Source of the DNA: an uncultured Christensenellaceae bacterium
Lineage (GTDB): Bacteria > Bacillota > Clostridia > Christensenellales > UBA3700
Direction: 5' to 3'
Assembly: GCA_944381365.1 (NCBI GenBank)
Contig: CALWKW010000002.1
Coordinates: 257,952 to 321,951 of the forward strand
Length of the DNA stretch: 64,000 nt
A model generated the notes under the pieces. The model did no database searches and was not told where the DNA came from. It saw nothing but the letters and a program-made list of their open reading frames with translations. Every line of letters begins with the position of its first letter. Position 1 is the first letter of the stretch. The position numbers were made by a program, and so were the translations under genes. This document shows, in pieces, positions 6,816-37,641 of this stretch.

Positions 6816-6906
6816 GGAGAAATACCCAAGAGGCCGAAGGGGCTCCCCTGCTAAGGGAGTAGTACGGGAAACCGTAGCGAGGGTTCAAATCCCTCTTTCT
6901 CCGCCA
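6816..6906 (+). tRNA. tRNA-Ser: tRNA-Ser, anticodon GCU, with encoded CCA
   Basis: Hand-folded cloverleaf. Acceptor GGAGAAA/TTTCTCC, anticodon stem CTCCC/GGGAG with loop CTGCTAA, 19-nt long variable arm, T-arm GAGGG-TTCAAAT-CCCTC, discriminator G plus CCA. Confidence 0.95.
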
Positions 6907-7079: not shown

Positions 7080-7844
7080 TTATCCTACAACAAAATTATC
7101 AATAATTTTCTGTAAATTTTGTTTTAGTCTTAAAAGAGCCTCTAAACAATTTTTAATTTTATTATAAAGTTCATTGTTTTGAATTGCATGAGTAAAATTT
7201 ATTGTCAAATATTGTCCGTGATTTATTTCCATCCTATCGGTATAATTATCCAAACACGATTCGTTATGTATTTCGTCATTTCTAACCTTATTGATAAAAC
7301 GTACGGAACTATTTATCTTGTATCTTTCAGCCTCATCATAAAATTCCTTAACATGGTTGTTACTTCGAGCGCATTCTTTAAGCGCATTCATAAAATCGCT
7401 ATTTCTTTCAGTTTTTTTCGGATCTAAATTCAGAATACTTCTTACTAAACTTTTTACTTTTTCCACATACATAAAAATTTCACAGCATACGCATCTGGCC
7501 TCATATCTCTGCCACACATTTAACAGCAATTTATTTATTTCTTCGTCACTCTCACTCCATAGCTTACAATAATGAATATAACTATATAATGAGTTTCTCA
7601 AATAGAAGATCGAGTTGTTGAATTTCCTTACTTTTTCTCTTAAATCTTTATTTATCAAATCACAGCTATCTTCACATTCTATATCAGAAACAGAAATTAG
7701 TTCAGTCAATCCATTCTTGGCGCAAAATTTTTTTGTGTCAATAAACAGTGAGTTTACATCAAAATAATTGACCTTAGTTTCTTGCCTATCCTCATTACTT
7801 GGCAAAGATTGTGCCGAAAACATATCATTTTGCATCATTATCAC
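7080..7844 (-). CDS. Hypothetical protein with a C-terminal HEPN-like Rx4H motif (candidate abortive-infection RNase)
   Basis: 254 aa, very low GC. 'FINKVRNDEIHNES' fits the HEPN R-x4-H signature in a predicted all-helical context. Single gene at the element edge. Confidence 0.4.
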   Translation of the reverse strand: MIMMQNDMFSAQSLPSNEDRQETKVNYFDVNSLFIDTKKFCAKNGLTELISVSDIECEDSCDLINKDLREKVRKFNNSIFYLRNSLYSYIHYCKLWSESDEEINKLLLNVWQRYEARCVCCEIFMYVEKVKSLVRSILNLDPKKTERNSDFMNALKECARSNNHVKEFYDEAERYKINSSVRFINKVRNDEIHNESCLDNYTDRMEINHGQYLTINFTHAIQNNELYNKIKNCLEALLRLKQNLQKIIDNFVVG

Positions 7845-7938: not shown

Positions 7939-8217
7939 CTCCAAATTTTGCCGTTTCGTTGCGGCTATCGTAGCACAGATTTCGCAGAAGTCAATGCGAA
8001 AAAATATCGCTTAAAAATCAAATATCTCTTAATTTAAAAGCCGGGAAGAAATTTCTTCTCGGCTTTTTCTTTTGCTTTGAAAATCTAACAACTCCAACTC
8101 AATATTTTTTCGTGGCCGTTTGACTTCTGGTTTCTTTACTTCCAATAAACAGACCTATGCTCAATCGGTGCTGCTCAGCTACTGCCGAAAGGCAAAATAA
8201 ATTTGGAGGTAAATCCT
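7939..8217 (+). repeat. Conserved non-coding leader, copy A (homologous to 33913..34189)
   Basis: The 78-nt block 7939-8016 differs at only 5 positions from 33913-33990. A conserved hairpin with T-run lies at 8040-8068 (GCCGGGAAGAA-ATTT-CTTCTCGGC-TTTTT). A conserved block lies before the RBS. Confidence 0.8.
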
Positions 8218-8481
8218 ATGGAAAACAAAGTTTCCCAAATTCCTGAATTCAAGAGATATTATCTCTCAGAATTCGAACTCTATGACGGTGAAGAATTCAT
8301 CACCTTCAACATCGTAGGAATCGATGCTGCCAAGAATGAAATCCGGATAGCCGTTACCAACAGAGGCAAAATAAGCGTTATCACTTACGACCTTCTGACG
8401 GATAAAAACGGCAGACTGTATTTCGAGTACGGCGCCATGTTTGAACACGTCCATCTGGACGACTTCGAGGAGGTGGCGTAA
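8218..8481 (+). CDS. Small conserved hypothetical protein (module A gene 1; paralog of 34190..34453)
   Basis: ATG 8218 sits 8 nt after GGAGG. 87 aa, about 70% identical by eye to the module B copy. Confidence 0.7.
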   Translation: MENKVSQIPEFKRYYLSEFELYDGEEFITFNIVGIDAAKNEIRIAVTNRGKISVITYDLLTDKNGRLYFEYGAMFEHVHLDDFEEVA

Positions 8482-8894
8482 TGAAGCTTACTCTTGCAAA
8501 CATCAAAGAACTGAAACGTAACTCAAGCAGTCCGCTTATTAAGCGGGTTTGCAACTACGTTATAGGCGAATGGAGCGACTATTCCGATAAGAAAAGCATC
8601 TTTACCGACGTGCTTTATCACGGCTGTCAATCCGGTATTGTCGGAGAACTTATCTACTACACAGACACCGTGCGCTTCTACAAACAGTACAAGGAAGAAA
8701 TCAACAGCCTTCTGTACGACGCAATGGACGGTACAGGACTTTACGCTCCTTCCGAGCTATTCGGCGACAAGTGGGACAAAGAAGATCCGCTGGCGCAGTA
8801 CGACTACAATCAAAACCTTCTGGCGTGGTTCGGTTTCGAAGAGACGCTTAGGAACATCGCTTACAAATTTGAATCATTAGAAAACTACATTTAA
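8481..8894 (+). CDS. Conserved hypothetical protein (module A gene 2; paralog of 34453..34866)
   Basis: 137 aa. TAATG overlap with the upstream gene. High by-eye identity to the module B copy ('GELIYYTDTVRFYKQYKEEINSLLYD', 'SELFGDKWDKEDPLAQ'). Confidence 0.7.
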   Translation: MKLTLANIKELKRNSSSPLIKRVCNYVIGEWSDYSDKKSIFTDVLYHGCQSGIVGELIYYTDTVRFYKQYKEEINSLLYDAMDGTGLYAPSELFGDKWDKEDPLAQYDYNQNLLAWFGFEETLRNIAYKFESLENYI

Positions 8895-8906
8895 GGAGAA
8901 AAGACT

Positions 8907-9317
8907 ATGAAAACGACAATTACCAAAAAAGAAAAAGCAATCGAAATCATGAAGAAAATGGATATCTACAAGCCTTATATAAACGGATTTGAGCAGAAAG
9001 ATAAAGTATGCTTCTTTGAACAATTCGGCGGCTTCTGGATCGACCAAGAGCCTGAACTTTACGAAAAGATGAAAGCCCTCGAAGAAAAGCACAAGTGCAA
9101 GGTTTACGCCGTTACGCACGAATACACGGAATTCGGAGAACTTTACGACTTCCTTATCGTAACCGACTATCCCGAAGAATGGGATACCCTCGTATACAGT
9201 CAGGGCAACCGTCATACGGCTTTTGCTTACGTCTGGAACAAAGACGACGACTGGTGTTCGGAATTCGGCAGCGTTACCGTACAAAGCTTCGGGGGCGGTA
9301 TCAGAAGAATTGCGTAA
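8907..9317 (+). CDS. Conserved hypothetical protein (module A gene 3; paralog of 34880..35290)
   Basis: 136 aa. Starts 'MKTTITKK.KAIE.MKK.DIYKPYI.GFE.KDKVCFFEQFGGFWI.QEPELY' in both copies. Confidence 0.7.
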   Translation: MKTTITKKEKAIEIMKKMDIYKPYINGFEQKDKVCFFEQFGGFWIDQEPELYEKMKALEEKHKCKVYAVTHEYTEFGELYDFLIVTDYPEEWDTLVYSQGNRHTAFAYVWNKDDDWCSEFGSVTVQSFGGGIRRIA

Positions 9318-9325
9318 GGTGAAAT

Positions 9326-9628
9326 ATGAAAATTTACTTAGTAGTATTTGAATGGTCTACCGAAGATGACTCGGACGTAGATATTGAAGCTTTTTACACC
9401 TATGAAAAAGCTGCTCTAAGGTTTCAAGAACGCATAAACGAGGAAAAGACGGATATGTCTTGGGTGCATGAAGCTTTCGATGAAAACGGCGATATTCTTG
9501 ACGGATATGATTTCGATGAATGCCAGCCCGATACGCGTTTAGAAACTTATGCATATTGGAACATCACGAACAAATATAACTGGCAGATGCACGATTACAT
9601 CGCCATCATACAGTTGGAGGTGAAATAA
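9326..9628 (+). CDS. Small acidic hypothetical protein (present only in module A)
   Basis: 100 aa, rich in D/E ('EWSTEDDSDVDIEAFY', 'DENGDILDGYDFDECQPD'). Tightly packed in the operon. No counterpart in module B. Confidence 0.55.
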   Translation: MKIYLVVFEWSTEDDSDVDIEAFYTYEKAALRFQERINEEKTDMSWVHEAFDENGDILDGYDFDECQPDTRLETYAYWNITNKYNWQMHDYIAIIQLEVK

Positions 9629-9820
9629 ATGAAACCCTATAAAACAACAGCTCATATCCATTCCCGGAACGGTGAAATGGACGAAATAACGATAATCGAT
9701 AAAATCGGAGATAACGACTACATCGTGGACTATAAGGGCGTGAAATGTCACGCCCTTTTTAATTGGTTCAACTGCACCTACTACGCAGACGACCTCTACG
9801 GGAGAATCAACAATGACTAA
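9629..9820 (+). CDS. Small hypothetical protein (module A only)
   Basis: 63 aa. TAAATG junction with the upstream gene. Confidence 0.45.
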   Translation: MKPYKTTAHIHSRNGEMDEITIIDKIGDNDYIVDYKGVKCHALFNWFNCTYYADDLYGRINND

Positions 9821-10028
9821 CATCCAAAAACTTGCCGCAGAAGGCAATAAAAATCATAGGATTTTCGCGGCAACGGTCGTAGACCTTATGAATTCGCAAG
9901 GATTTTACGGTCGGCTTTACCGCTCCATCAACGAAATGGACGACGACAGATACGAACAGTTTTTTGAACTGATCGGCGAGCAGAATTTCAAAGATTCGCT
10001 GGATGTCGTACTCTGGCTCGAATGTTAA
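9813..10028 (+). CDS. Small hypothetical protein (module A only)
   Basis: 71 aa. 8-nt overlap with the upstream ORF. Same strand and operon. Confidence 0.45.
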   Translation: MTNIQKLAAEGNKNHRIFAATVVDLMNSQGFYGRLYRSINEMDDDRYEQFFELIGEQNFKDSLDVVLWLEC

Positions 10029-10048
10029 ATTACAGGAGGTATAACACT

Positions 10049-10423
10049 ATGGCTAAATTAGCAGAACTCAAAAAGTATCTGAATTACGAATTTTCATCCG
10101 GCTGTTATACGGGCGAAGATTACAAATCCTTTCAGACCAAATATATCAACTACCTGAAAGCAATGTGCCGTGAAAATCACTGGCAGCTTGTAAACGTCGG
10201 AAAAAATCATTACTGCTTCTCCGCTTTTATCAAGAGTGCGGATAACAAATGCGTTTACATCTCTGTAAGCGACGTCAGGTATTTCAACAACGAATGGCAC
10301 GACCATATTCTCATTCGCACGGCGCAAAACGAAGTCGATTACAAAGGCGGTTTTAACCATTACACCACACTCGACGGGTTGGAAGGAAAAGCCGCCGAAC
10401 TGCTCGACGATATGCCGTTTTAA
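10049..10423 (+). CDS. Conserved hypothetical protein (module A; paralog of 35305..35679)
   Basis: Start at MAKLAELKKY (ATG 10049, after AGGAGG). 124 aa in both copies. Shared blocks 'YTGEDYK.FQTKYINYLKAMC..NHWQLVNVGKNHYCFSAFIKS'. Confidence 0.7.
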   Translation: MAKLAELKKYLNYEFSSGCYTGEDYKSFQTKYINYLKAMCRENHWQLVNVGKNHYCFSAFIKSADNKCVYISVSDVRYFNNEWHDHILIRTAQNEVDYKGGFNHYTTLDGLEGKAAELLDDMPF

Positions 10424-10434
10424 GGAGGCGCAAT

Positions 10435-10704
10435 ATGAAATCAATCATTGAAGAACTGTATTACGGAAATATCTATGCAAAAGACATTGTATTACCCGAA
10501 AAGAAACGCAAAAAAGAACTTGCGCTTTACGACAAACTGAAAGCAACTTTGTCAAAAGAAAGCGACGAACTCTTTGAAAAATTTATCGAGCTTATAGATG
10601 ATCATTACGACGAACTGATGCTAATGATTTACAAACGCGGCGTTTCTACGGGAATTATGATTGCTGCCGAAGCATTTATCGAAGGAGAAAAACTATGCGA
10701 TTGA
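10435..10704 (+). CDS. Small hypothetical protein (module A only)
   Basis: 89 aa. RBS AAGGAGG upstream. No counterpart in module B. Confidence 0.5.
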   Translation: MKSIIEELYYGNIYAKDIVLPEKKRKKELALYDKLKATLSKESDELFEKFIELIDDHYDELMLMIYKRGVSTGIMIAAEAFIEGEKLCD

Positions 10705-11693
10705 ATCTTGAAACCAAAACAAAAGAACAGGAACTCGTAAAGGCATACCTTGAAGAGAACGCAAGCGAAACTCTTGTAGAGAAAATCAACAACGGCACGC
10801 CTTTTGAAAAGGACGGAAAGCAACTTATCAACCGCAAAACGCTGGACGGCTTTATGCGATACGCCTGCGACGAAGCGAGAAAGCTCGCGGCAAAAGGCGC
10901 AAACTCCGCTTGCGTGGAAGAAAAAGTCGTGTACGGCTGGGCGGTGCATTACTTCGAGGAGGAGTCCATAGAAGGCACGCTCTTTAACGAAGACGGTACA
11001 GAGTATAATCCTGCTCCGAAACCGACGCCTGCTCAGGTCAGGAAAGTAGAAGCGAAAAAGCCGGAACAGCGTCAACCTACGCTCTTTGATTTTATGGAAC
11101 CGGAATCACCCGAACCCGAAGTCAACGATGAAAACGGCGACGATGAGGACGAACAGCCTTCACAAGAAGAAATCGACGAAATCCTTGCCGAAATTGCCGA
11201 AGAAGAAAAATCCGATGCGGAACCGGAAAAGCTCGTTTCACCGATCTGGCAAAAATATCAAGAACTTCAAAAGGAACACTCCGACCGTATTCTCTTGTAT
11301 CGCTTGGGCGATTTTTATGAAGTTTTCGGGGATAATGCCGTAACTCTTTCCGATGAACTCGGCTTAACCCTTACAGGCAGAGATGTAGGACTTGAAAGCC
11401 GTATTCCGATGATAGGTTTTCCTTATCACGCAGCGAACAACTATCTCCCAAAAATAACTCAAAAACACAAAATAGCCGTCGCCGAAACGCCCGACGACGT
11501 AAAGCTGCTCCCTGAACCCGAAGACGACTTCGATGAGCTGACGGAAGAAGAAATGCGGGAGTTTGACGGCGATATAGAAGAACCGAAAGACCTTGACGAC
11601 GAACCCGATAACGGTTTCGACACTTCCGCTTTCGATAAAAACGCTCTCTGCAAACTCGATGAGATCTTCGGCGATAAACTTACTTTGAGGTGA
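10695..11693 (+). CDS. PcfK-like/AcrIIA9-family-like N-terminal domain, an acidic linker, and a MutS-domain-I-like insert (fusion protein)
   Basis: N-terminal ~115 aa match the module B paralog and, from memory, the PcfK-like family. Residues ~185-265, 'SPIWQKYQELQKEHSDRILLYRLGDFYEVFGDNAVTLSDELGLTLTGR...IPMIGFPYHAANNYLPKI', resemble the MutS N-terminal mismatch-binding domain. Long D/E-rich stretches are present. Confidence 0.55.
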   Translation: MRLNLETKTKEQELVKAYLEENASETLVEKINNGTPFEKDGKQLINRKTLDGFMRYACDEARKLAAKGANSACVEEKVVYGWAVHYFEEESIEGTLFNEDGTEYNPAPKPTPAQVRKVEAKKPEQRQPTLFDFMEPESPEPEVNDENGDDEDEQPSQEEIDEILAEIAEEEKSDAEPEKLVSPIWQKYQELQKEHSDRILLYRLGDFYEVFGDNAVTLSDELGLTLTGRDVGLESRIPMIGFPYHAANNYLPKITQKHKIAVAETPDDVKLLPEPEDDFDELTEEEMREFDGDIEEPKDLDDEPDNGFDTSAFDKNALCKLDEIFGDKLTLR

Positions 11694-11697
11694 AATT

Positions 11698-13017
11698 ATG
11701 AAAGTTACAGTCATCAAACCCATTCCAAAATACATATTGGAGAGAATCCGAAAGACGGACAACAAAAACTATCCGAACCCTGACGGTCACGTTCGCTGTT
11801 ATGCCTATCTTACCACTTGGAAAAACGAACTTGTGAAGGTGACCGTTGCCGTAAAGCACCGTTATAAAAAATGGTACTGCAAACAGGTTGCCGTACATGG
11901 ACTGAACTCGGATAAGTGCTTCGTAAAGGATATGGAATACTGCTACTGCGCAAGCATGGGCTTTCGTTTCGGCTGGTACGAAGAAGGCTTGCAAAAATAC
12001 AAAAACTGGTACGAACGCGGTTGGTGCTGGGCGGACGATAAATATTACGATCCATACGCTACGCTTATCAATCCCGACTTTATAGACCGCTTGCCGGAAT
12101 TCAAATTCAGCGCATATAAACTGTATCAGGGCTGCGATATTTTCAAGTATTTACGGCTTTATCGGCAGTATCCCCAGATTGAAATGCTGATGAAACTCGG
12201 CTTTTCGAGAATTGCCATGAGCACCACCATTCTTAAACGCTGCGGAACGGATAAAGCCTTCTGCAAATGGCTCATTTCCAACAAAGCGTTGCTTCAAAAC
12301 AGACACTACTATATCGACGTCATAATCCGTGCATATAGGACGAAAAAACCGCTTGAACAGTTGCAATCATATAAGGAAGAGAAGCTCAGACTAATCCATG
12401 ACAGCAGTCTTACTCCCATTAAAGAACTGTTCAAAGGAAAAGACCTTGAACGGCTCTTCGACTATATGCTAAAACAACAGACCAACCCGAACACTTATCT
12501 CGACTATCTGAAAGCCTGCCAACATCTCGGTCTGGATATGACAGAAGAAAAGGACCGTTTTCCCCACGATTTCAAACGCTGGCACGATATCCGAATCGAC
12601 GAATACGCCACGAAAAAGGCTATGGAAGACGAAGAAAAACGCAAGGAACTGTATATTCAATTTGCCGCCGTTGCGGAAAAATACCTGTCTTTGCAACACG
12701 CAAAACGAAGCTCATTTATCTGCATTATCGCCCACAGCCCGGCAGATCTGATTCGAGAAGGCGAAATGTTGCATCACTGCGTCGGCAGAATGGGTTACGA
12801 CCAAAAATTTGTCCGCGAAGAAACGCTCATTTTCTTTATCCGCAACAAGCAGGAACCCGATACGCCGTTCGTTACAGTCGAATACTCCTTGAAAAACCGG
12901 AAAATCCTGCAATGCTACGGAGAACACGACCACAAACCGAGCGAAGACGTACTGCATTACGTCAACAAAGTATGGCTGCCTTACGCCAACAGAACACTCA
13001 AACAAATTGCCGCATAG
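11698..13017 (+). CDS. PcfJ-like protein (paralog of 36319..37641)
   Basis: 439 aa. C-terminal 'EGEMLHHCVGRMGYDQKFVREETLIFFIR...PFVTVEYSL' block, as I recall for the PcfJ-like domain of conjugative plasmids and ICEs. Confidence 0.6.
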   Translation: MKVTVIKPIPKYILERIRKTDNKNYPNPDGHVRCYAYLTTWKNELVKVTVAVKHRYKKWYCKQVAVHGLNSDKCFVKDMEYCYCASMGFRFGWYEEGLQKYKNWYERGWCWADDKYYDPYATLINPDFIDRLPEFKFSAYKLYQGCDIFKYLRLYRQYPQIEMLMKLGFSRIAMSTTILKRCGTDKAFCKWLISNKALLQNRHYYIDVIIRAYRTKKPLEQLQSYKEEKLRLIHDSSLTPIKELFKGKDLERLFDYMLKQQTNPNTYLDYLKACQHLGLDMTEEKDRFPHDFKRWHDIRIDEYATKKAMEDEEKRKELYIQFAAVAEKYLSLQHAKRSSFICIIAHSPADLIREGEMLHHCVGRMGYDQKFVREETLIFFIRNKQEPDTPFVTVEYSLKNRKILQCYGEHDHKPSEDVLHYVNKVWLPYANRTLKQIAA

Positions 13018-13030
13018 GAGGAATTAAACA

Positions 13031-13315
13031 ATGGCAAACTATTTCAGAATTACAGCTTATCACCCGACCGAAAATCTCTCGGTCATTATGGATTCAAACG
13101 GACTGTTTGAAAAACTCTGGCAATTTTCATCCTTTATGGTATCCAAAGGCTTCAAAATCATAGAAGTCGGAGGCGAAGACAAATTCGATGATGGAGATAT
13201 GCCGAAAGCAGAATACGATAACGTCCACGTTATTTTGCGTGCATGCAAAAGCGGTGAAGCGGAAATTACAGGAAACCGCATTACGGTGGAAGGTAAATCA
13301 TACACTACACTATAA
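13031..13315 (+). CDS. Small conserved hypothetical protein (paralog of 37657..37941)
   Basis: 94 aa. 'YFRITAYHPTEN.SVIMDS.G.FEKLWQFSS..VSKGFKII.VGGEDKFD.GDMPK' is shared between both copies. Confidence 0.65.
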   Translation: MANYFRITAYHPTENLSVIMDSNGLFEKLWQFSSFMVSKGFKIIEVGGEDKFDDGDMPKAEYDNVHVILRACKSGEAEITGNRITVEGKSYTTL

Positions 13316-13317
13316 AA

Positions 13318-13346
13318 AGAAAAAGCCGCTTAATTGCGGTTTTTTC
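13318..13346. terminator. Terminator hairpin between convergent genes
   Basis: AAAAGCCGC-TTAATT-GCGGTTTTT. Confidence 0.7.
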
Positions 13347-13350
13347 GCTT

Positions 13351-14766
13351 TTAATCTCCTTTTATATCAAACAATTGTTTTAACCTTCTTGAATTACTAA
13401 GTACGACTTGCTTCAATTGAATTTGAGGCAAACCTGCTCTTTCAAAAATCATAAAATATATCATTTTTTGCAATATTAGAGTGTCCAACATTACTGTATG
13501 ATAATCAATATTATTCTTTAATAAATGCGCTATGTCATTACGAGCATCCGTTATTCTATTAGCTAAATTAGTCATATCATAGCCAGTATATTTGGTCCCA
13601 AAACTGCTGGAGATTTGTGCTTTTGTTTTATCTAAACATTTTAGCATTTTAGCAAATACAAATTTTAGACGTGACCTTAAAGAACTTAATATTTTATCGA
13701 CACGATCTTTTTCACTCTTAATTATAGCTTTTTCAAGTTCTGTTTCTCCATCTGAATAATGAATTACACGCTTATAAGCAACCTTATAATCTTGTTCTTT
13801 AACACAATAATCCTCAATTCCTGCTTTTAGATTTTCCCTATACTGATTTTCAAACATGCTTGCACACCGCAATATATCTAATGGTTCACAAGTATTTGAT
13901 TTAGAATAATACAATTCTTTCAAATCAAAATTATCTATCAAAAACATTTTCATTATATTAGAAAAAACAGATTTTATAGTATCAAAATTAAAAATACTTT
14001 CTGTTAAAATACTTTTGGTGTCTTGTATAAAAAAAATATTTTCTATCAAAAAATTATTATCATTCGCTAAGTTCACATAGTTAATAAAATTCCCAGCATC
14101 ACAAAGCAAAAATTCACAATATCTATTAACCGCATTTACAATTCTTACAACCAAATCATCACTTATACTTTTATTCGCTTCAAACACAAACCCGCCAACA
14201 ATTTCTTTAGGGAATTTTATTTCCATAGATTGTTGGTTATGATTAAAATGGATTGCTGTGGATTTATATACTTTAATATGTATTTCATCGATATCAAACT
14301 CAGCGCATACTTCATTATCAATAAATCCGTTAGTATTATAATCAAAGCTATTGGGGGCAAAAAAATGTTCTAATAAGCATGGAGAAAAAACCTCTACTTT
14401 GAATATTGGAGAATCATTTCTAATTTTGCTTATTATTGATTTGACATAAAAACAAATTTCATAGCCATTGGTATAGCCATATTCTAAAAACGCAGTAAAG
14501 CCTTGCGAAATATCAACTTCCGAATCAAAATGTCCATACTCATGATTTCTATATTCATCAAAGCAAATCCATTTCTTATTTAAAGCTCTTATAACAACTA
14601 CATTTATATCATATCGCGAAATAAATCTAAAACTTGCAACGCCATTGTGAAAATTGTAACTTAAACGATTTCCGTCAATAGTTATTTCGCCTCTCGCAAT
14701 AAAATTATTAATGCGCTGAGCATCATTAAGTAAAAACTCACGAGCTATTTTCATAAATTTCTCCAC
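13351..14766 (-). CDS. HEPN-domain protein, ApeA-like (candidate single-gene abortive-infection defence)
   Basis: 471 aa, low GC. C-terminal 'ITDARNDIAHLLKN' is an R-x4-H HEPN motif. A large uncharacterised N-terminal region gives an architecture like ApeA (N-terminal domain plus HEPN). Confidence 0.45.
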   Translation of the reverse strand: MEKFMKIAREFLLNDAQRINNFIARGEITIDGNRLSYNFHNGVASFRFISRYDINVVVIRALNKKWICFDEYRNHEYGHFDSEVDISQGFTAFLEYGYTNGYEICFYVKSIISKIRNDSPIFKVEVFSPCLLEHFFAPNSFDYNTNGFIDNEVCAEFDIDEIHIKVYKSTAIHFNHNQQSMEIKFPKEIVGGFVFEANKSISDDLVVRIVNAVNRYCEFLLCDAGNFINYVNLANDNNFLIENIFFIQDTKSILTESIFNFDTIKSVFSNIMKMFLIDNFDLKELYYSKSNTCEPLDILRCASMFENQYRENLKAGIEDYCVKEQDYKVAYKRVIHYSDGETELEKAIIKSEKDRVDKILSSLRSRLKFVFAKMLKCLDKTKAQISSSFGTKYTGYDMTNLANRITDARNDIAHLLKNNIDYHTVMLDTLILQKMIYFMIFERAGLPQIQLKQVVLSNSRRLKQLFDIKGD

Positions 14767-15315: not shown

Positions 15316-16183
15316 ACCCTAAATCCCTTGCCAAATCTGTCCATGAGTCATAATGTTTACCTCTAATGACTGCCGGTAGTGATTCATCATTTTCCATAGG
15401 ATGAATCGGTTTATGTTCTCTCCTTCTTATTGTTTTTTCCCAATAAAATTTATGCGTTTTGTTTTCGTCCAAATATTCTAAAAGTTCTTCCGAGTATTTT
15501 TCCAACGCGCGTTGTTTGTGAAGAATATTAAATCCTATTGGCATAAACTCATTAGCACATATTTTTACTTGGTGTTCTTTTTTCCAATAATAGGGTTTTC
15601 CTTGATTATACATTTTCAAATTTGAATCTCTAAAATTTGGATGTCCGAAATCTATAGTCTGCACCGGAATATCTAAGCTTTTTAGCATATTAGAGATGTC
15701 TATAACCATTTGCCAATTGCCTGGAATTTCAATGTAAACTCTATGGAATCCTTCTTGCCCATATGCCATATTACTACGTCGAATATAACCTGTCACATCA
15801 GCAATTCCGCGTAACAGCTCTTTTTTTTCGTCATTTGATAACGAGAACAATTCGCTATTCATTGTCATTGTAGAATGATGAACACCGTTTCCAATAAATC
15901 GCATAATTTCTCGCATCGTATAATCGGCATTTGGCTTGGTAAAAGATATTTGCGTAACTCTTTTCCCTTGAACAATAGGTAATGAGTGCCCAATCAATGG
16001 TTCAACAACGCACCGTATATCTGCTAAACTGCTTTTTACATATACGGAAACTTCACGCCCTTCATCGTCCCTTAAATTTTTATGAGGCAACTCTATCGTA
16101 ATTGTAGTTGTATCTTCTTTACGTTGCACCTCGCCGTTTCCTAAAATCATTCCAATTAAATATGCCATTTGCGCATTCATCAT
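15305..16183 (-). CDS. Double-motif LAGLIDADG-like protein with both catalytic acidic positions substituted (candidate DNA-recognition subunit)
   Basis: 292 aa. 'AYLIGMILGNGEV' aligns to LAGLIDADG with N at position 8. 'LLRGIADVTGYI' is a second motif with T at position 8. ATGA overlap with the C5-MTase gene. Confidence 0.4.
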   Translation of the reverse strand: MMNAQMAYLIGMILGNGEVQRKEDTTTITIELPHKNLRDDEGREVSVYVKSSLADIRCVVEPLIGHSLPIVQGKRVTQISFTKPNADYTMREIMRFIGNGVHHSTMTMNSELFSLSNDEKKELLRGIADVTGYIRRSNMAYGQEGFHRVYIEIPGNWQMVIDISNMLKSLDIPVQTIDFGHPNFRDSNLKMYNQGKPYYWKKEHQVKICANEFMPIGFNILHKQRALEKYSEELLEYLDENKTHKFYWEKTIRRREHKPIHPMENDESLPAVIRGKHYDSWTDLARDLGYGE

Positions 16184-17274
16184 TGTTCTCCTTGCTCGTC
16201 AACTGTATCATTATATATTTTATCAGCTATCGCCTTTGCCATCAATGGTGGAACAGCATTTCCTATTTGAGTACGCACTGCGACTTTTGTACCGTAAAAA
16301 ATATAGGTATCATCAAAAGATTGAATGCGTGCTGCCTCACGAGGAGTAATAGCGCGGTTCAATACCGGATGATTATTGGTTCCGTTAGAGGCCGCATCAA
16401 ATCTGGTATCTATCGTCGGAGAAGCTTCGTCCCATTTTAGGCGTCCCCAAGTTGAATGAAATTTTTGTTTGCCGAGAAGCTCTTCGGGTAAAAACTCTTT
16501 TCCTTTCTCAGGGGGGATCATCTGTAATTTTTGTATCGCAATTTGAGCATGATTGGAAGCCTTATGATTATATAGTTTTGCGCTATTTCTCCTCATCATT
16601 TTTTGATAATCAGTCGATGCTGGCAACCTATAATCTTGCTCAAAAGCTCCTTCTCCCGATTCCAAATATGCCAAATCACTTATTGCTTCACGAACAGTAA
16701 CAGTTTTACTGCAAGTCGGTAATGGCAAACATATTTTTTTATTCTTACAGCAAATGAAGATTGTTCTTTCTCTTGTTTGAGGAACGCCAAAATCACTTGC
16801 TTTTAATACGCCGACATCAACATTGTAACCGAGTTTATTTATTGCAGATATAATCTCTTCTTTAAACCAACCTTTAGATGTAGAAAGCAGAGTTTTAACA
16901 TTTTCAATAACAAAAACTTCCGGCTGTAACCTTTCTACCAATTTCAAATACTCAATGAAAAGAAAATTACGAGGATCCTTAAGTCCAAGTTTTTTTCCTT
17001 TCATAGAGTAACCCTGACACGGTGGCCCGCCAATTATCATATTGACTTTATATTTAAGAGATTGCTCTATTACTTCATTCTTCACTTCTTGCGTTTTAAT
17101 ATCGCCAACAATAACATGGACATCCGGCATATTCTTCTTAAGAGTAATAGCTAGTTTATCATTTATGTCTAAAGCGACAACTGTTTTGAAGTGGGGATTC
17201 AAATGCATCCCATAAGACATTCCACCTGCGCCACAAAACAAATCAAGTATTCTATAATTGACATCTATGTTCAT
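16180..17274 (-). CDS. DNA (cytosine-5)-methyltransferase
   Basis: Motif I 'DLFCGAGGMS', motif IV 'GGPPCQGYS', motif VI 'FVIENV', motif VIII 'QTRERTIFI', motif X 'QIGNAVPP'. Confidence 0.92.
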   Translation of the reverse strand: MNIDVNYRILDLFCGAGGMSYGMHLNPHFKTVVALDINDKLAITLKKNMPDVHVIVGDIKTQEVKNEVIEQSLKYKVNMIIGGPPCQGYSMKGKKLGLKDPRNFLFIEYLKLVERLQPEVFVIENVKTLLSTSKGWFKEEIISAINKLGYNVDVGVLKASDFGVPQTRERTIFICCKNKKICLPLPTCSKTVTVREAISDLAYLESGEGAFEQDYRLPASTDYQKMMRRNSAKLYNHKASNHAQIAIQKLQMIPPEKGKEFLPEELLGKQKFHSTWGRLKWDEASPTIDTRFDAASNGTNNHPVLNRAITPREAARIQSFDDTYIFYGTKVAVRTQIGNAVPPLMAKAIADKIYNDTVDEQGEQ

Positions 17275-18299
17275 TTAATCTTCTTCCTGATAAGTATTCT
17301 TTTGAAAATATCTTTTCCTTTGATTCTTGGCTTAAATAAGTCGAACTCATTATCGGAGCCATGATTTGCCTCACCAATTATTTCAAACTGAGAATCATTA
17401 TGATACTTTAGATAAGTAAGAGGAACTCCCATTATTCCCGTATAATCTGATGGAATTTCCAAAACTCTAGAAACATTTATAGCGTCAAAATCATCATACT
17501 TAGGATATTTTTCCGGATCGTACTTACAGGTTAAGACTAATTGCTGATGCTTACGTTCATTATCTAAATTGGTAAGCCACATTGCATTTCCTAAGCTACG
17601 CCATTTCTGCCCGGTTTCGTCGACCCAAAATCTATATTTTCTAGGTTGTGTATCATTCGGGACTTTAAAAGCCATATCGCCAAAACGGTAACCAATCCAA
17701 GCTTGCCCACTTTTAATGAAAGGAAAAATCTCTTTATAAGTTATAGCATTTTGATTGCCAATTAACAAGTATTGTTTCTTATATTTTACCAACAATGAGA
17801 ACAAGTCTATGAATTTAGAAAAAGGTGGATTTGTGACTACTATATCAGCCTCCTTAAGATATTCAACACATTCCTCACTTCTAAAATCGCCGTCACCTTT
17901 TAATTTCTTAACAACCTTTAATTTATTTATTAGATCTGTTATACTGTCACCATGAAGTAAGACTTCCTCAATATTAGGAAATTGTTCTACAACCATTACA
18001 TAAGCAGCATTATCTACTAGCGGAGAATAATTGTCATCTACTATAGTCGACTGAGCAACAATTCTTGATCCCTTATAAGAGGTACAAATTAATTTTTTTA
18101 GTTTCAGTGTATTAAAATTTTTCAAAAAATAGGTTGTAAAAGCAGATTTGTAAGGATCATCACAATTACATAAAACAACCTTTCCTTGAAATTGTTCAGA
18201 ATAATGAGAAATCTCCGACTCTACAGTTGCATAGTCGGTGTACCATTCGTCTGTGTTTTCAGTATATCTAGCTTTATTAAGTATAGAATTGTTTGCCAC
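17271..18299 (-). CDS. N6-adenine DNA methyltransferase, EcoRI-methylase-like family
   Basis: 'DEWYTDYATVE...GKVVLCNCDDP...GDFRSEE...ADIVVTNPPFSKF...LLIGNQNAITYKE...YPKYDDFDAINV' matches my recollection of the EcoRI_methylase family. NPPF catalytic motif. Confidence 0.75.
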   Translation of the reverse strand: MANNSILNKARYTENTDEWYTDYATVESEISHYSEQFQGKVVLCNCDDPYKSAFTTYFLKNFNTLKLKKLICTSYKGSRIVAQSTIVDDNYSPLVDNAAYVMVVEQFPNIEEVLLHGDSITDLINKLKVVKKLKGDGDFRSEECVEYLKEADIVVTNPPFSKFIDLFSLLVKYKKQYLLIGNQNAITYKEIFPFIKSGQAWIGYRFGDMAFKVPNDTQPRKYRFWVDETGQKWRSLGNAMWLTNLDNERKHQQLVLTCKYDPEKYPKYDDFDAINVSRVLEIPSDYTGIMGVPLTYLKYHNDSQFEIIGEANHGSDNEFDLFKPRIKGKDIFKRILIRKKIK

Positions 18300-18870: not shown

Positions 18871-19920
18871 TCAGTTACATTTGCGCATTTGCTCGATGAC
18901 GGCTTTACTCACTTTGCCCATATAGCAGCCTTCGTCCCAGCACGAGAAATCGTCAAAAAGAAGCAGTTTCTTATCTTCAAGACCTATCGGACAGACGACA
19001 TCTTCGTCCATAATGTCCGAGATAAAGAATTGCGGCAATCCCTTAGAATAGACCATCTTTTCGCCTGTTTTCTCCATGTACTTTGTAAGATAAGCTATTG
19101 CTTCACCCAACATAGAACGATCGTCTACCGTTTTGAAATCGGATCTACCGAACCGTTTATTGAAATACGAGTTCTGTATTGTTGTCTGTACCTTCTTTTT
19201 GATAGGAGAATAGTCCTTGACTTCAACGAGTTCGCCCGGCATCGAGCCTTCGGGGATATAGAACAACCCGTGGAAATGCAGACGCTGTTTTTCGGGAGAG
19301 CGTTCCCATACGCCGACATACTTCCAATCTTTACGGTGGCACATCATTTTGAAACAGCCTTGAAGCTTCTTTTTGAAACTTTCTTCCGTGTGCTTTTCGC
19401 CGTCGTAGGTAAACGTGCAGAAATAGTTAAACTCCTGCAAATTAACCTTGCGGGTAAGCCTTACACGCCGACAAACAAGATTGCGTAATTTACGTTCAAA
19501 TTGCTCATTCACATACATTACCGTGCTTTTTTCGTCCTTAAAATACGGGTTCATGTTGTGAATGATAAATTTCTTCCTATCACTTCTGGTCTTTCCTGCA
19601 GTGGATTTATATAATTCCTCAAACAATTCCTTTCTTGTCATTGTCCTTACCTTCGGCTGTGATTCGGATTGCGGTTCAGACTCAGACTCTGACGATTCAA
19701 TATTTTTCTCAAGTGCAATAGGCGCATCGTCATTCTCCGACGGTGCGCTTTTAGTTGCCTTGCTATTTTCTTCTGTTTCGGTGGGCGGTTCGGCTTCTTT
19801 TTCCGTTACAACGATTTCTTCTTCCGGCGGTTTTTCCCGCCGCCTTGACGGCCTTGTCGTGTGCGGTATTCCTATGTAATGACTGCCGTCAAAGTAGATT
19901 TTACATTCGCCGTATGGCAT
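18871..19920 (-). CDS. HUH-superfamily rolling-circle replication initiator or relaxase-like protein
   Basis: Start at MPYGECKIY (ATG 19920 after GGAGG). Motif 1 'FCTFTYD', HUH motif 'LHFHGLFYI', Tyr motif 'AIAYLTKYMEK'. Acidic/Ser-rich linker near the N-terminus. Confidence 0.7.
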   Translation of the reverse strand: MPYGECKIYFDGSHYIGIPHTTRPSRRREKPPEEEIVVTEKEAEPPTETEENSKATKSAPSENDDAPIALEKNIESSESESEPQSESQPKVRTMTRKELFEELYKSTAGKTRSDRKKFIIHNMNPYFKDEKSTVMYVNEQFERKLRNLVCRRVRLTRKVNLQEFNYFCTFTYDGEKHTEESFKKKLQGCFKMMCHRKDWKYVGVWERSPEKQRLHFHGLFYIPEGSMPGELVEVKDYSPIKKKVQTTIQNSYFNKRFGRSDFKTVDDRSMLGEAIAYLTKYMEKTGEKMVYSKGLPQFFISDIMDEDVVCPIGLEDKKLLLFDDFSCWDEGCYMGKVSKAVIEQMRKCN

Positions 19921-19952
19921 AGATACCTCCTTTACAGGAGTACCGACCATCT

Positions 19953-22079: not shown

Positions 22080-22210
22080 AATACACCTCCTACCTGAGAG
22101 ATAATCGCTTGACCGTCGGTCAATCGGCTACCCGTATAGACGAGATAGCCGACGACCAAAACGGTCACGATTAAGAGGCATACGACAAGTATTCTCTTAA
22201 CCGTTTTCAT
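22076..22210 (-). CDS. Unannotated 44-aa single-TM protein, translationally coupled to the ATPase gene
   Basis: Hand translation: MKTVKRILVVCLLIVTVLVVGYLVYTGSRLTDGQAIISQVGGVL. Its TGA overlaps the ATG of 19953..22079 (ATGA). Below the ORF-track length cutoff. Confidence 0.55.
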   Translation of the reverse strand: MKTVKRILVVCLLIVTVLVVGYLVYTGSRLTDGQAIISQVGGVL

Positions 22211-22213
22211 TTG

Positions 22214-24229: not shown

Positions 24230-24825
24230 AATACAATCACCTCCTGATCAAGTTCGACTCCTGCGACTTCTTCTATCACCGAGAAGTACAGCGTTACGCT
24301 GGATTCTCCGTTATAGGAAGTCACGATGAGCGAATACATATCGGTATAGCCTTTACCTTCGCATCCGCTGATCTCATTGTTGGGATAGACCGCCTGCAAC
24401 ACGTCGGTCACGGTACCTTTGGGGGTAAGCGTAAACGAGTTTTCTCCGTATTCGATATCGAAACCGGGCGTCAGATTTGTTTCCGCCTGAAACGAATAAA
24501 TTTGTCCGTCAAGCGAAAAATCAAAGTCCTTGCCGTCCACGACATGAGGTACAACCTTGACCGTATAGCCGCTGACGCCGCCTCCGGCTGAACCGAACGT
24601 ATATTTGACGTCAACATTTAACGGTTTTTCATTGGTTACCTCATAACCGCCTGCCGATGTAAGAACATCTTTACCGTCCACGGAGACGTAGAACGTCTTG
24701 AAACTGCTTGTAAAGCCACCCGTAAAACGAACGATTACGCCTATCACGCCCGCAAGAACCAAGACAACGAGAATATAGGCAATCACTTTTGCTACTGTTT
24801 TTCCTGTCTGTTTTGCGGAACTCAT
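24226..24825 (-). CDS. Membrane-anchored beta-rich protein (function unknown)
   Basis: 199 aa. N-terminal TM 'VIAYILVVLVLAGVIGVIV'. RBS GGAGGTG upstream. Confidence 0.55.
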   Translation of the reverse strand: MSSAKQTGKTVAKVIAYILVVLVLAGVIGVIVRFTGGFTSSFKTFYVSVDGKDVLTSAGGYEVTNEKPLNVDVKYTFGSAGGGVSGYTVKVVPHVVDGKDFDFSLDGQIYSFQAETNLTPGFDIEYGENSFTLTPKGTVTDVLQAVYPNNEISGCEGKGYTDMYSLIVTSYNGESSVTLYFSVIEEVAGVELDQEVIVF

Positions 24826-24840
24826 GGTTCACCTCCGTCA

Positions 24841-25857: not shown

Positions 25858-25872
25858 GTTTTACCTCCTGTA

Positions 25873-28405: not shown

Positions 28406-28804
28406 CTAATTCAAAAATTTTTTTATTTTTTCTAAAATTCGAGCAATTCTATTATTCAGTGCTTGTTTACAAATGGATAATTCAGCCGCTACTTCCGACT
28501 GCTTCCGTCCATAATAAAAGATCTGCTTAATAAGCCATTTTTGATCTTCGGTTAAAGTTTTTATAGCTTTACTTAATTGCTCAATATCGTACTTTTCAAA
28601 AAGTTTTTCTTCAACATTGCTGTTTGGATCAGCAACCTGAAACCCGGCTTCAACCATTCTCTCCAACGAACTGTCTTTTCGCTTCTTATCACGCCATATT
28701 TGACGGGCTTCTTCCGCCTCAATCTGTTCATACTGCCTTGCAAATTCGTCCGAAACTTCAACTTCGACAAACGTGCCATTGACTTCATACTTAATAGTTT
28801 TCAT
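28406..28804 (-). CDS. Sigma-70 region-4-like HTH regulator (conjugative-transposon/prophage type)
   Basis: Start at MKTIKYEVNG (ATG 28804). C-terminal 'LTEDQKWLIKQIFYYGRKQSEVAAELSICKQALNNRIARILEKIKKF' is a region-4 HTH pattern. Confidence 0.6.
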   Translation of the reverse strand: MKTIKYEVNGTFVEVEVSDEFARQYEQIEAEEARQIWRDKKRKDSSLERMVEAGFQVADPNSNVEEKLFEKYDIEQLSKAIKTLTEDQKWLIKQIFYYGRKQSEVAAELSICKQALNNRIARILEKIKKFLN

Positions 28805-28940
28805 TTGATTTCCTTTCCCCTTGTGCTCAATGGGGGGCGAGCGATTTTTCGTAAATCGCTGTCGGAAATCTCTGAAAATAAAAAAAGACCCGACAGCAGT
28901 GAACCAAATCACTGCCATCGGGAGAGAAAGCCTATTTTTG

Positions 28941-30016: not shown

Positions 30017-30625
30017 CTAAACAACGTCCTTGATAACCTTTATCACTATGCCTTGAATATCTATACTGTCGAAGAACATATCTTCCATTTTATCGTTTTC
30101 GGGATGCAGTCTTACTCTGTGTTTCTTCTTATCTAAATAAAAACGCTTTAACGTCGCTTCATCGTCAATCAAAGCAACGACAATTTGTCCTTCTTCGGCT
30201 GTATTCTGTTGCCTTACGATAACAAAATCCCCGTCCTCTATGTTTGCGTTAATCATACTGTCGCCGCAAGCGTGAAGAGCAAAGAACTTGCCGGGACCGA
30301 GTATCGAAGAAGAAATCGGGATATAACTCTCAATATTTTCTTCTGCGAGCATAGGGGTGCCGCAAGCAATGCTTCCTACTATCGGAACTCTCACGGTATC
30401 GGCTAATACCTTTGACATTTTTTTCGTTCTGATACCACGCCAACCTCCCGTTGTTTCAATCAACCCACGCTCTTTCATTGCTTGGAGATTGCGACTGACA
30501 TTACTTTTGTTTAACTTTATCGCGTCCGCTATCTCCTGCATTGTAGGCACTGTATTGTTGGCAAAGTAGTATTCGTCTATAAACTCAATAATCGAGTTAA
30601 AGACCGATTCGCTCATTACCTTCAT
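30017..30625 (-). CDS. LexA/CI-like repressor (winged-helix N-terminus plus S24 self-cleaving peptidase)
   Basis: 'MQEIADAIKLNKSNVSRNLQAMKERGLIE' HTH. S24 catalytic 'ACGDSM' (Ser) and 'EATLKRF' (Lys). Start chosen at ATG 30625. Confidence 0.8.
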   Translation of the reverse strand: MKVMSESVFNSIIEFIDEYYFANNTVPTMQEIADAIKLNKSNVSRNLQAMKERGLIETTGGWRGIRTKKMSKVLADTVRVPIVGSIACGTPMLAEENIESYIPISSSILGPGKFFALHACGDSMINANIEDGDFVIVRQQNTAEEGQIVVALIDDEATLKRFYLDKKKHRVRLHPENDKMEDMFFDSIDIQGIVIKVIKDVV

Positions 30626-30664
30626 AAAAAAATCCTGCTCTTTTGATTTATTACGCAATTTTTG

Positions 30665-36318: not shown

Positions 36319-37641
36319 ATGACAGAAAAAGATATTAGACCTATACCAAAATACATATTGAAACTAATACAAAAAATAGATAAGTTAAATTACCCTATGC
36401 CTGACGGACATGTCAGATTTTATTCTTATCTCACATCAAAGAAAGGCGAACTTATTAAAGTTACGGTAGCCGTAAAACACCGCTATAAAAATTGGTATTG
36501 CAAGCAAGTAGCTATACACGGATTACATTCAGAAAACTGCTATGTAAAAGACTTGGAATATTGCGGAATGGTAGGTATGGGATTTAGAGTCGGCTGGCAC
36601 GACGAAGGATTGCAGAAATACCGTAATTGGTTTGAAAGCAAAGATTGGTGCTATGCACAAGATAAATATTACGATCCCTATGCTCCGCTAATTAATAGAG
36701 AATATATATCTCGCTTTAAGGAATTCAAATACAGTGCTTACGAGCTTTACTATGGTAACGATATATTTAAGTACCTAAGACTTTATGAGCAATACCCTCA
36801 AATGGAAATGCTTATGAAATTCGGCTTTACCAGAATTGCACAAAGTAAAACAATACTAAAGCTAACAGGCAAAGACAGAAGCTTTTGCAAGTGGCTCATT
36901 AATCATAAAGAACAACTGCAATCTAAGTTCTACTATAACGATGTGATTGTAAAGGCATATAAGACAAACAGACCAGTAGATAAATTGCAATCATATAAAA
37001 GTGCTAAACTTCAGTTGCAGCACGATAGCAACCTATCTCAAATTAAAGAACTATTCAAAGGCAAAGAATTAGAACGCTTTTTCGATTATATCTCTTTTCA
37101 AGATACAAATCCGCATACTTTTTTAGACTATGTTAAAGCCTGTCAATATCTCGGTTTGGATATGTCAATAGACAAAAACCGCTTCCCTCATAATTTCAAA
37201 CGCTGGCACGATATACGAATTGACGAATATGCTACCAAAAAAGCTTTGGAAGATGCAGAAAAGAAAAAGGAACTCTATGCCAAGTTTGCATATGTAGCCG
37301 AAAAGTATATGTCCCTAGAAAAACAAAACAGCAGACAATACATAGCCATCATTGCTCAATCCCCTGCCGATTTGATAAACGAAGGCGAAGTGCTTCATCA
37401 CTGCGTAGGACGAATGAACTATGACCAAAGATTTATTAGAGAAGAAAGCCTTATCTTCTTTATACGCAATAAGCAAACCCCGGATATTCCTTTCGTTACC
37501 ATTGAATACTCTCTTAAAACAAGAAAAGTATTGCAATGCTACGGTGACCACGATAGCAAACCTAGTGAAGACATACTCCACTATGTCAATAAAATTTGGC
37601 TACCCTATGCCAACAAAACACTTAAGAAAATACCATCATGA
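36319..37641 (+). CDS. PcfJ-like protein
   Basis: 440 aa. Paralog of 11698..13017 ('EGEVLHHCVGRMNYDQRFIREESLIFFIR'). Confidence 0.6.
   Translation: MTEKDIRPIPKYILKLIQKIDKLNYPMPDGHVRFYSYLTSKKGELIKVTVAVKHRYKNWYCKQVAIHGLHSENCYVKDLEYCGMVGMGFRVGWHDEGLQKYRNWFESKDWCYAQDKYYDPYAPLINREYISRFKEFKYSAYELYYGNDIFKYLRLYEQYPQMEMLMKFGFTRIAQSKTILKLTGKDRSFCKWLINHKEQLQSKFYYNDVIVKAYKTNRPVDKLQSYKSAKLQLQHDSNLSQIKELFKGKELERFFDYISFQDTNPHTFLDYVKACQYLGLDMSIDKNRFPHNFKRWHDIRIDEYATKKALEDAEKKKELYAKFAYVAEKYMSLEKQNSRQYIAIIAQSPADLINEGEVLHHCVGRMNYDQRFIREESLIFFIRNKQTPDIPFVTIEYSLKTRKVLQCYGDHDSKPSEDILHYVNKIWLPYANKTLKKIPS

Follow-up and report, generated by a model that had tools for sequence, protein, structure and literature searches.

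The 64,000-nucleotide stretch analysed here (the window; contig CALWKW010000002.1 of assembly GCA_944381365.1, from an uncultured Christensenellaceae bacterium) contains an integrated island in which one gene encodes a PcfK-family protein fused to domain I of the mismatch repair protein MutS (MutS-I). Its open reading frame (ORF) begins with an ATG, with a GGAG Shine-Dalgarno sequence 8 nt 5' of it, and the 332-residue product is strongly acidic, with an isoelectric point of 4.3 and a net charge of -45 by composition. An identical protein, without a name, is already present in the NCBI/ENA protein collection, encoded on a contig of 524,698 bp. A paralogous gene in the same window, here called copy B (the fusion being copy A), encodes a PcfK-family protein in which the MutS-I segment is absent. 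The coordinates of both genes and of the features around them are collected in Table 1.

Comparison of the two copies defines the insert. The proteins are 64% identical overall, and their alignment is interrupted by a single gap of 125 residues, corresponding to residues 154-278 of copy A. A first-pass annotation of this DNA, made from the sequence alone, had described copy A as copy B plus an insert of about 120 residues, and this description holds, as does its reading of the ORF. The flanks of the insert are conserved in both copies, with LFDFM on the N-terminal side and TEEEMREFDGDI on the C-terminal side, and the N-terminal 152 aligned residues are ~70% identical. Because the acidic linker aligns poorly, the boundary of the insert is uncertain by about 10 residues. 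Copy B, whose ATG start lies inside a longer ORF that begins with TTG, is presumably functional without the insert. The operons to which the two genes belong are 26 kb apart and show 72-79% nucleotide identity in their long aligned blocks.

The core of the insert, which the same annotation had likened to MutS domain I, matches that domain to a degree well above chance. The Pfam MutS_I profile (PF01624) matches the fusion protein with an expectation value (E) of 6.5e-21 and 75.1 bits, against a cut-off of 20.6, with residues 183-268 covering profile positions 2-88 of 113; all 43 full-length fusion homologues aligned also match it. In a phmmer search of the PDB, residues 182-268 align to residues 11-98 of Escherichia coli MutS (E 7.4e-16), and the insert is 57% identical to residues 14-101 of an 850-residue Firmicutes-type MutS. 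The predicted structure gives the same answer: Foldseek pairs it with MutS domain I in the E. coli, Taq and Neisseria structures (E 1.8e-8, root-mean-square deviation 1-3.5 Å, 78-108 columns, 33-45% identity), and with MSH3 from MutSbeta chains at 19-24% identity. Its sequence marks the core of the insert as a MutS domain I that was taken over from a MutS of the Firmicutes type, and as a module of the same kind as the MutS-I domains of polyvalent proteins. Nearest-neighbour identities between domains are only weakly resolved (49% within the PcfK type, compared with 45% to Firmicutes MutS), so that a single capture and multiple captures are not separable. The MutS connector, lever, clamp and ABC ATPase domains (MutS_II-V) are absent from the fusion protein, in which Pfam finds MutS_I alone and the PDB matches stop within MutS residues 11-98. 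The fusion protein can thus neither perform nor signal mismatch repair.

The residues by which MutS contacts a mismatch are retained. In the alignment Phe207 and Glu209 fall on Phe36 and Glu38 of E. coli MutS, the Phe-x-Glu wedge for which the first-pass annotation had proposed to look. Conservation was assessed in 162 copies of the domain, taken from the best 150 cluster representatives (clustered at 50% identity); 67 of the copies are in PcfK-type proteins. Among the 67, the GDFYE motif is close to fixed (G205 98%, D206 95%, F207 97%, Y208 95%, E209 100%), as are A215 (100%), R236 (97%), G241 (94%), P243 (91%) and Y250 (91%); in the 43 full-length fusions G205, D206, E209, A215, R236, G241, P243 and Y250 are invariant. 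MSH2 and MSH3 have the domain I fold without the Phe-x-Glu motif. Conservation of GDFYE here therefore points to retained DNA contact and not to folding alone.

The fusion protein is built from two folded domains joined by disordered, acidic linkers. This layout comes from an AlphaFold2 (AF2) model calculated with the alignment of the 43 full-length fusions; it replaces a single-sequence model whose mean predicted local distance difference test score (pLDDT) was only 42. In the alignment-based model residues 1-110 and residues 181-272 each form a confident domain, with linkers of low confidence between them. The N-terminal domain has two helices, two strands, two helices and one strand, in that order, and the MutS-I domain (181-272) has a pLDDT above 90. 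In linker 1 the acidic tract (residues 135-181) is 47% Asp/Glu and has one predicted helix, 157-173; Phe131 is invariant and Gln127 and Asp132 are at least 90% conserved in the 43-fusion alignment. Linker 2 (273-312) reaches 50%, so that long Asp/Glu tracts do flank the core of the insert, as had been noticed at the outset. The linker 2 motif TEEEMREFDGDIEEP is also kept in copy B, with 82% identity over 73 nt at the DNA level, and a C-terminal segment homologous to residues 276-332 is seen in 28 of the 150 representatives. An internal motif, EEEMREFDGDIEEP, at 11544-11588 (residues 284-298; 36164-36208 in copy B) resembles the acidic C-terminal tail of bacterial single-stranded-DNA-binding protein (SSB), MDFDDDIPF; as the motif is internal and not C-terminal, mimicry of the SSB tail is only a lead.

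Assignment of the remainder of the protein to the PcfK family (PF14058), also suggested by the first-pass annotation, stands for copy B, which scores 36.7 bits, and for 39 of the 43 fusion homologues, which match the profile at E<=1e-3; copy A itself, at 25.3 bits, falls just under the gathering score of 27. The family does include the Cas9 inhibitor AcrIIA9, as that annotation said: PMC6739104 and PMC10328345 state that this protein carries the Pfam PcfK domain. According to PMC6739104, PMC10328345 and PMC13239955, which cite Uribe et al. 2019, it is a protein of 141 residues from a human-gut metagenome. AcrIIA9 binds SpyCas9 (PMC13239955), and its homologues, mostly from Bacteroidetes, are frequent on integrative and conjugative elements (ICEs), where they adjoin ArdA (PMC6739104).

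The fusion is abundant. A search of 5.8 billion proteins gave 6570 matches, of which the best 120 are 86-92% identical and 328-341 residues long; all of these have PF01624 and all but a few also PF14058. Nearly all of the 120 are unnamed; where a source does give a name, it is either 'hypothetical protein' or 'DNA mismatch repair protein mutS'. One variant is present on 214 contigs. When the insert alone was the query, the combination of a PcfK N-terminal domain with MutS-I was found in 49 of the top 150 representatives, and hence in at least 49 clusters. Two of the 49 have tandem MutS-I modules (P0125, P0151), and a further representative, P0121, has two MutS-I modules and the C-terminal segment with no N-terminal domain detected. 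The module is thus optional and duplicable, being absent from copy B and other relatives and doubled in some. Five representatives (P0124, P0126, P0129, P0133 and P0137) start at or after LFDFM and comprise the acidic linker, MutS-I and the C-terminal motif and helix, with no PcfK N-terminal domain; either the gene calls are truncated or the fusion exists naturally in a split form.

Among GTDB genomes, taken one per species, 124 stretches carry a relative, and the best 80 loci were kept. The insert is present in 76 of these and absent from four; nearly all are from uncultured gut Clostridia (Coproplasma, Scatosoma, Gallimonas, Christensenellaceae and others). In a metagenome-assembled genome (locus L008, 10001-11004) the 1004-nt homologue has 11 stops on straight translation and is frameshifted, either as a pseudogene or through an assembly error. 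The search of IMG/VR turned up only one full fusion, together with PcfK-only and MutS-I-only genes. BFVD and IMG/VR between them hold stand-alone MutS_I proteins of 74-153 residues, a fusion of 254 residues and giants of 1605-5118 residues, and GDFYE is intact in those IMG/VR proteins whose domain sequence was inspected.

The whole of the fusion, including MutS-I, is under purifying selection. Median pairwise Nei-Gojobori ratios of non-synonymous to synonymous substitution (dN/dS) among close homologues are 0.11 for the N-terminal domain, 0.15 for linker 1, 0.16 for MutS-I and 0.18 for the C-terminal part. The modules do not always diverge in step. Between the window and two related loci (L005 and L007) dN is ~0.10 for the N-terminal domain and ~0.44 for MutS-I, and for a third (L003) the pattern is reversed, 0.21 against 0.07. 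Such discordance among relatives implies recombination within the gene between diverged elements.

The fusion gene is the ninth of eleven co-oriented genes in a conserved operon at ~8203-13315. Directly downstream is a PcfJ-family gene, a near-obligate partner found in this position in 53 of 55 related loci, and the 94-residue gene that closes the operon is followed by a terminator-like hairpin at 13319-13346 in a terminator scan. Upstream of the first gene, the non-coding stretch at 7940-8070 is 89-97% identical to its copy B counterpart, compared with 70-83% for the long coding blocks in the same comparison. It contains the hairpins GCCG-N8-CGGC and TTTCGC-N10-GCGAAA and a 14-bp terminator-like stem-loop (AAGCCGGGAAGAAATTTCTTCTCGGCTTTTT), its DNA fold has a z of -2.8, and eight other loci share a 17-mer with it, located about 250 nt upstream of their operon. 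Rfam gave no match for either copy. This stretch could be a cis-acting site, for which a Rep nick site, a single-strand origin, an attachment site (att), an origin of transfer (oriT) and a regulatory RNA are all candidates.

Table 1. Features of the fusion gene, its operon and the element that carries them (window positions; residue numbers are those of copy A)
Feature	Position	Strand	Evidence or remark
PcfK / MutS-I fusion gene, 332 aa, stop codon 11691-11693	10695..11693	+	ORF list; Pfam MutS_I and PcfK
PcfK-type N-terminal globular domain, residues 1-110	10695..11024	+	AF2 pLDDT 78-94; PcfK profile match at residues 44-93
Linker 1, residues 111-181: basic patch and LFDFM motif, then acidic tract	11025..11237	+	Low pLDDT; composition
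125-residue segment lacking in copy B, residues 154-278	11154..11528	+	Pairwise alignment
MutS domain I, residues 182-272	11238..11510	+	Pfam; E. coli MutS match; AF2; Foldseek
Codons F207-Y208-E209, aligned to the E. coli MutS Phe36-x-Glu38 wedge	11313..11321	+	Residue-by-residue alignment
Acidic linker 2, residues 273-312, 50% Asp/Glu, with conserved motif TEEEMREFDGDIEEP	11511..11630	+	Composition
C-terminal amphipathic helix (FD..AL..LDEIFG..L.LR)	11631..11690	+	AF2 helix 315-328
Upstream small operon genes: 92 aa, DUF7222, 136 aa, 100 aa, 63 aa, 71 aa, 133 aa, DUF6809	8203..10704	+	ORFs; Pfam; synteny with copy B and other loci
PcfJ-family gene	11698..13017	+	PF14284 E 9.8e-32; starts 4 nt past the fusion stop
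94-aa conserved gene closing the operon	13031..13315	+	Homologue in 50/55 loci
Non-coding element with hairpins 5' of the operon	7940..8070	+	Copy comparison; copy B counterpart 33913-34041
Copy B, PcfK-family paralogue without MutS-I insert, 207 aa	35690..36313	+	Alignment; PcfK 36.7 bits
PcfJ gene of copy B	36319..37641	+	70% identical to copy A PcfJ
Rolling-circle Rep (REP_ORF2-G2P)	18871..19950	-	Pfam E 1.1e-11
LexA/CI-like S24 peptidase repressor	30017..30658	-	Pfam
Sigma gene	28406-28918		
Serine recombinase	30927-32465		Followed by operon copy B

The island that carries both operons is ~48 kb long and extends from a tRNA-Ser(GCT) gene at 6816-6906, its left edge, to chromosomal genes past ~55.5 kb. 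Repeats of the 3' end of the tRNA-Ser gene and other direct repeats that might delimit it were sought and none was convincing, which leaves unsettled both the element boundaries and the choice between one composite element and two tandem elements. The backbone in the window comprises HEPN proteins, C5 and EcoRI-type methylases, the rolling-circle replication protein (Rep), five large ORFs, a sigma gene and the S24 repressor. Related contigs share the operon, variable cargo, a REP_ORF2-G2P Rep with several unannotatable genes, and a sigma-70-like gene or an S24 LexA-like repressor; their cargo includes a 1320-residue protein in one and a Thoeris-like SIR2/TIR set in another. In L081, L082 and L085, too, a Rep of this family is found downstream of the operon, and in the first two an S24 gene adjoins it; a Rep homologue is no more than 10 kb away in 12 of 25 loci. 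Neither a relaxase nor a type IV coupling protein (T4CP) nor VirB4 was recognised in the window or among the annotated neighbours of related loci, and a conjugative leading-region context is for this reason not claimed. The host is an integrated mobile element with rolling-circle replication, which we do not call conjugative, and the presence of Rep implies single-stranded intermediates.

Some further features of the element deserve mention. Directly downstream of Rep, at 19953-26943 on the minus strand, are five large ORFs (708, 671, 199, 338 and 356 residues) with a G+C content of 46-48%, compared with ~35% around them, and with no Pfam or PHROG match. The 338- and 356-residue products are paralogues (36% identity), and homologues of the 708-residue ORF occur downstream of Rep in 11 of 25 related loci; the five may represent an unrecognised transfer or morphogenesis module of this type of element. 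Defence-type cargo is present at 7080-7844, 13351-14766, 16180-18299, 42402-43463, 44450-45283 and 46365-49385. It includes two HEPN-like proteins, C5 and EcoRI-type methylases, a truncated HsdM, a GIY-YIG/DUF4357 protein and an SF1 helicase with DUF2726 that matches the PADLOC MkoA/MkoC models. At the equivalent position in L085 (4215-6888) are a Thoeris-like SIR2/STALD gene and two TIR genes. Elsewhere in the window, two tandem 99-nt repeat units, 97% identical, lie at 41120-41317 within an ORF at 40919-42412 (minus strand) whose product has a Listeria-Bacteroides repeat (Flg_new).

What might a MutS-I module do for such an element? In the reading that we favour, which we rate as evenly poised between right and wrong, the module would be a handle for distorted or single-stranded DNA (ssDNA) that puts an acidic, anti-defence-type PcfK scaffold on the element's own DNA. 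The domain, with its Phe-x-Glu wedge, would grip kinked, mismatched or partly unpaired DNA, and its targets would be the imperfect hairpins and the junctions between single and double strands in the element's single-stranded intermediates, whether these arise in rolling-circle replication or in transfer. The handle would in this way concentrate the scaffold on element DNA during establishment or replication. The scaffold, made up of the N-terminal domain, the short conserved motifs and Asp/Glu tracts that resemble a DNA mimic, and acting with the co-translated PcfJ, might then shield the element DNA or block a host DNA-targeting factor. A comparable role has been proposed for MutS-I and ArdC-N in polyvalent proteins. 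The position of the insertion, in a low-confidence acidic linker between two confident folds, fits a tethered module that acts independently.

Several observations weigh against this proposal. We know of no experiment on any MutS-I domain outside MutS. The DNA affinity of MutS comes mostly from the clamp domains of the dimer, and a lone domain I may bind weakly; the flanking tracts, ~50% Asp/Glu, could moreover repel DNA or auto-inhibit its binding. The last canonical strand of the domain (E. coli ~107-115, including Arg108) is unconserved, the Pfam match ending at position 88 of 113, and AF2 puts a short substitute strand at residues 268-271. For the scaffold, a profile of the N-terminal domain finds no relative in the PDB, the matches being at chance level only (doublecortin, E 0.03; NF-YB, E 0.08), and the PHROG families that match this domain lack an assigned function. 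PADLOC has no model for either PcfK copy, nor for the PcfJ of copy A (that of copy B was outside the scan). By Pfam there is no ArdC-N domain in the fusion or in the operon proteins scanned (ORFs 8203-8481, 9629-9820 and 9813-10028 were unscanned), compared with 80% of cases for polyvalent proteins. Finally, the anti-CRISPR claims for AcrIIA7 and AcrIIA8, two products of the screen that yielded AcrIIA9, have since been withdrawn or called into question, and neither is a Cas9 inhibitor according to PMC13239955, so that 'anti-CRISPR' labels for the PcfK family are to be handled with care.

The strict retention of the mismatch-contact residues would also be expected if the protein were an antagonist of mismatch repair and of its anti-recombination activity, a role that we consider unlikely. 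Here the free wedge would hide the element's mismatches and small loops from host MutS, with two effects: imperfect ssDNA hairpins would escape MutS-MutL nicking, and the barrier that MutS sets up between diverged co-resident elements would be lowered. It suits this idea that the insert is closest to MutS of the host type (57% identity to that from Firmicutes), that the window has a second, diverged copy of the operon 26 kb from the first, and that the mosaic divergence of modules between relatives implies frequent recombination of diverged elements. Mosaicism is nevertheless common in mobile elements that lack any such factor, many related elements do without the insert, and on general grounds a monomeric domain with neither clamp nor ATPase is expected to be a poor competitor of dimeric MutS. 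The first-pass annotation had suggested a decoy or blocker of mismatch recognition, or a targeting of the protein to DNA ends, and the computations made here speak neither for nor against these roles. MutL contacts the connector and ATPase domains of MutS, not domain I; a decoy for MutL is thus unlikely, and only competitive occupation of mismatches is plausible. The most specific form of the idea is that elements of gut Clostridia use a free MutS wedge, tethered to the acidic Acr-family scaffold, as a dedicated antagonist of host MutS, masking mismatches and loops in hairpin-rich ssDNA or in heteroduplexes. We regard this as a long shot; if true, mismatch recognition would have its first natural protein inhibitor.

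A different emphasis would place the activity in the PcfK part. The N-terminal domain and acidic tracts might, in the manner of AcrIIA9, inhibit Cas9 or some other defence directed at DNA, with the insert tuning specificity or stability or adding a second, unrelated target; this, too, seems to us rather improbable. The scaffold belongs to the PcfK family, as does the SpyCas9-binding AcrIIA9, whose homologues are common on ICEs beside ArdA; the fusion is extremely acidic (net charge -45), and copy B presumably functions with no insert at all. The documented tie to AcrIIA9 is, however, that of a shared Pfam family, for which copy A scores under the gathering threshold, and most genomes with AcrIIA9 homologues have neither II-A systems nor self-targeting spacers. 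The insert, for its part, is under purifying selection about as strong as that on the rest of the protein and its contact motif is invariant, so that it is not a passive spacer. As for a decayed or accidental fusion, a functionless mutS fragment picked up by the element, the presence of domain I alone and the loss of the C-terminal 25 profile positions would suit it, but it is hardly credible and effectively refuted by the conservation data: the recurrence of the architecture in 49 or more clusters (50% identity) and among the relatives at 76 of the best 80 loci, a dN/dS of 0.16, invariant motif residues, a confident fold and tandem duplications of the module.

The proposal that MutS-I serves as a DNA-binding handle for the PcfK scaffold, and its competitors, can be approached through this family. 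Co-option of the MutS mismatch-recognition domain by mobile elements was predicted computationally in 2017, and the PcfK / MutS-I proteins are the simplest natural test object for it, being short and soluble-looking with one MutS-I module. The insert-less paralogue in the same genome is a built-in control, and there are thousands of natural variants. The fusion could reveal whether domain I on its own is able to recognise ssDNA, loops or mismatches, whether homeologous recombination or mismatch repair is subject to interference from mobile elements, and what role is played by the widespread PcfK/PcfJ pair, including the AcrIIA9 family.

How does the fusion compare with systems already described? 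With the PcfK/AcrIIA9 family it shares a homologous N-terminal domain, coding by a mobile element and acidity, and, as in pCF10, its gene adjoins PcfJ (a comparison made by family names). In contrast with AcrIIA9, it is more than twice as long, with the MutS-I insert and a long acidic C-terminal part, and its hosts are Clostridia, whereas those of AcrIIA9 homologues are mostly Bacteroidetes. A functional analogy might be drawn with the ArdC-N and ArdA establishment proteins of conjugative elements. These are likewise element-coded and non-enzymatic, and they blunt host nucleases by binding the ssDNA of the element (ArdC-N) or by mimicking DNA with an acidic surface (ArdA); the fusion shows no sequence or fold relationship to either, however, and no evidence of transfer into recipients.

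In relation to canonical MutS, the domain is 39-45% identical to that of E. coli and 57% identical to the Firmicutes type over ~88 residues, has the same fold, and keeps the GDFYE wedge and the LTLT.R and R.PM.G.PYH motifs. Unlike MutS, the fusion is without domains II-V, and with them the ATPase, the clamp and the dimerisation helix-turn-helix are missing; it can neither recruit MutL nor serve as a sliding clamp.

The closest parallel is with polyvalent proteins, the conflict proteins of 2-15 domains that are encoded by phages or conjugative elements (PMC5512222). Iyer et al. 2017 (J Bacteriol 199:e00245-17; PMC5512222) described MutS-I as a DNA-binding domain in such proteins from elements of Bacteroidetes and Firmicutes. 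They derived it from classical MutS, noted that ArdC-N co-occurs in ~80% of cases, and proposed that, as the element invades or replicates, it recognises those stretches of element DNA that are mismatched or single-stranded. The first-pass annotation had thought a MutS domain I unusual on a mobile element; given these polyvalent proteins and the small phage MutS_I proteins it is not, and the insert proves to be common, with no different established function attached to it. Proteins of the polyvalent type are in fact among the insert's closest relatives, one with ArdC-N, MPTase-PolyVal and two MutS_I domains (P0136) and another with MutS_I and N6_Mtase (P0193), and tandem arrays reach four Pfam-scored stretches (P0176, with DUF285, four MutS_I and ArdcN).

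In both cases a mobile element uses a MutS domain I taken from cellular MutS, without the repair ATPase. The fusion differs in its partner, PcfK, a domain unmentioned in PMC5512222; in its small size (332 residues, two modules), with MutS-I inside an acidic disordered linker and no catalytic domain; and in its host, which has a rolling-circle Rep and no recognised type IV secretion system or phage genes. In a literature search for PcfK together with MutS the sole co-mention was in unrelated table rows. We conclude that, while capture of MutS-I by mobile elements is already known, the combination of PcfK with MutS-I is an architecture described in none of the papers found. PMC5512222 states that polyvalent proteins are the sole occurrence of MutS-I outside MutS; the PcfK fusions, together with the small phage MutS_I proteins, correct this statement and give the domain further homes of its own.

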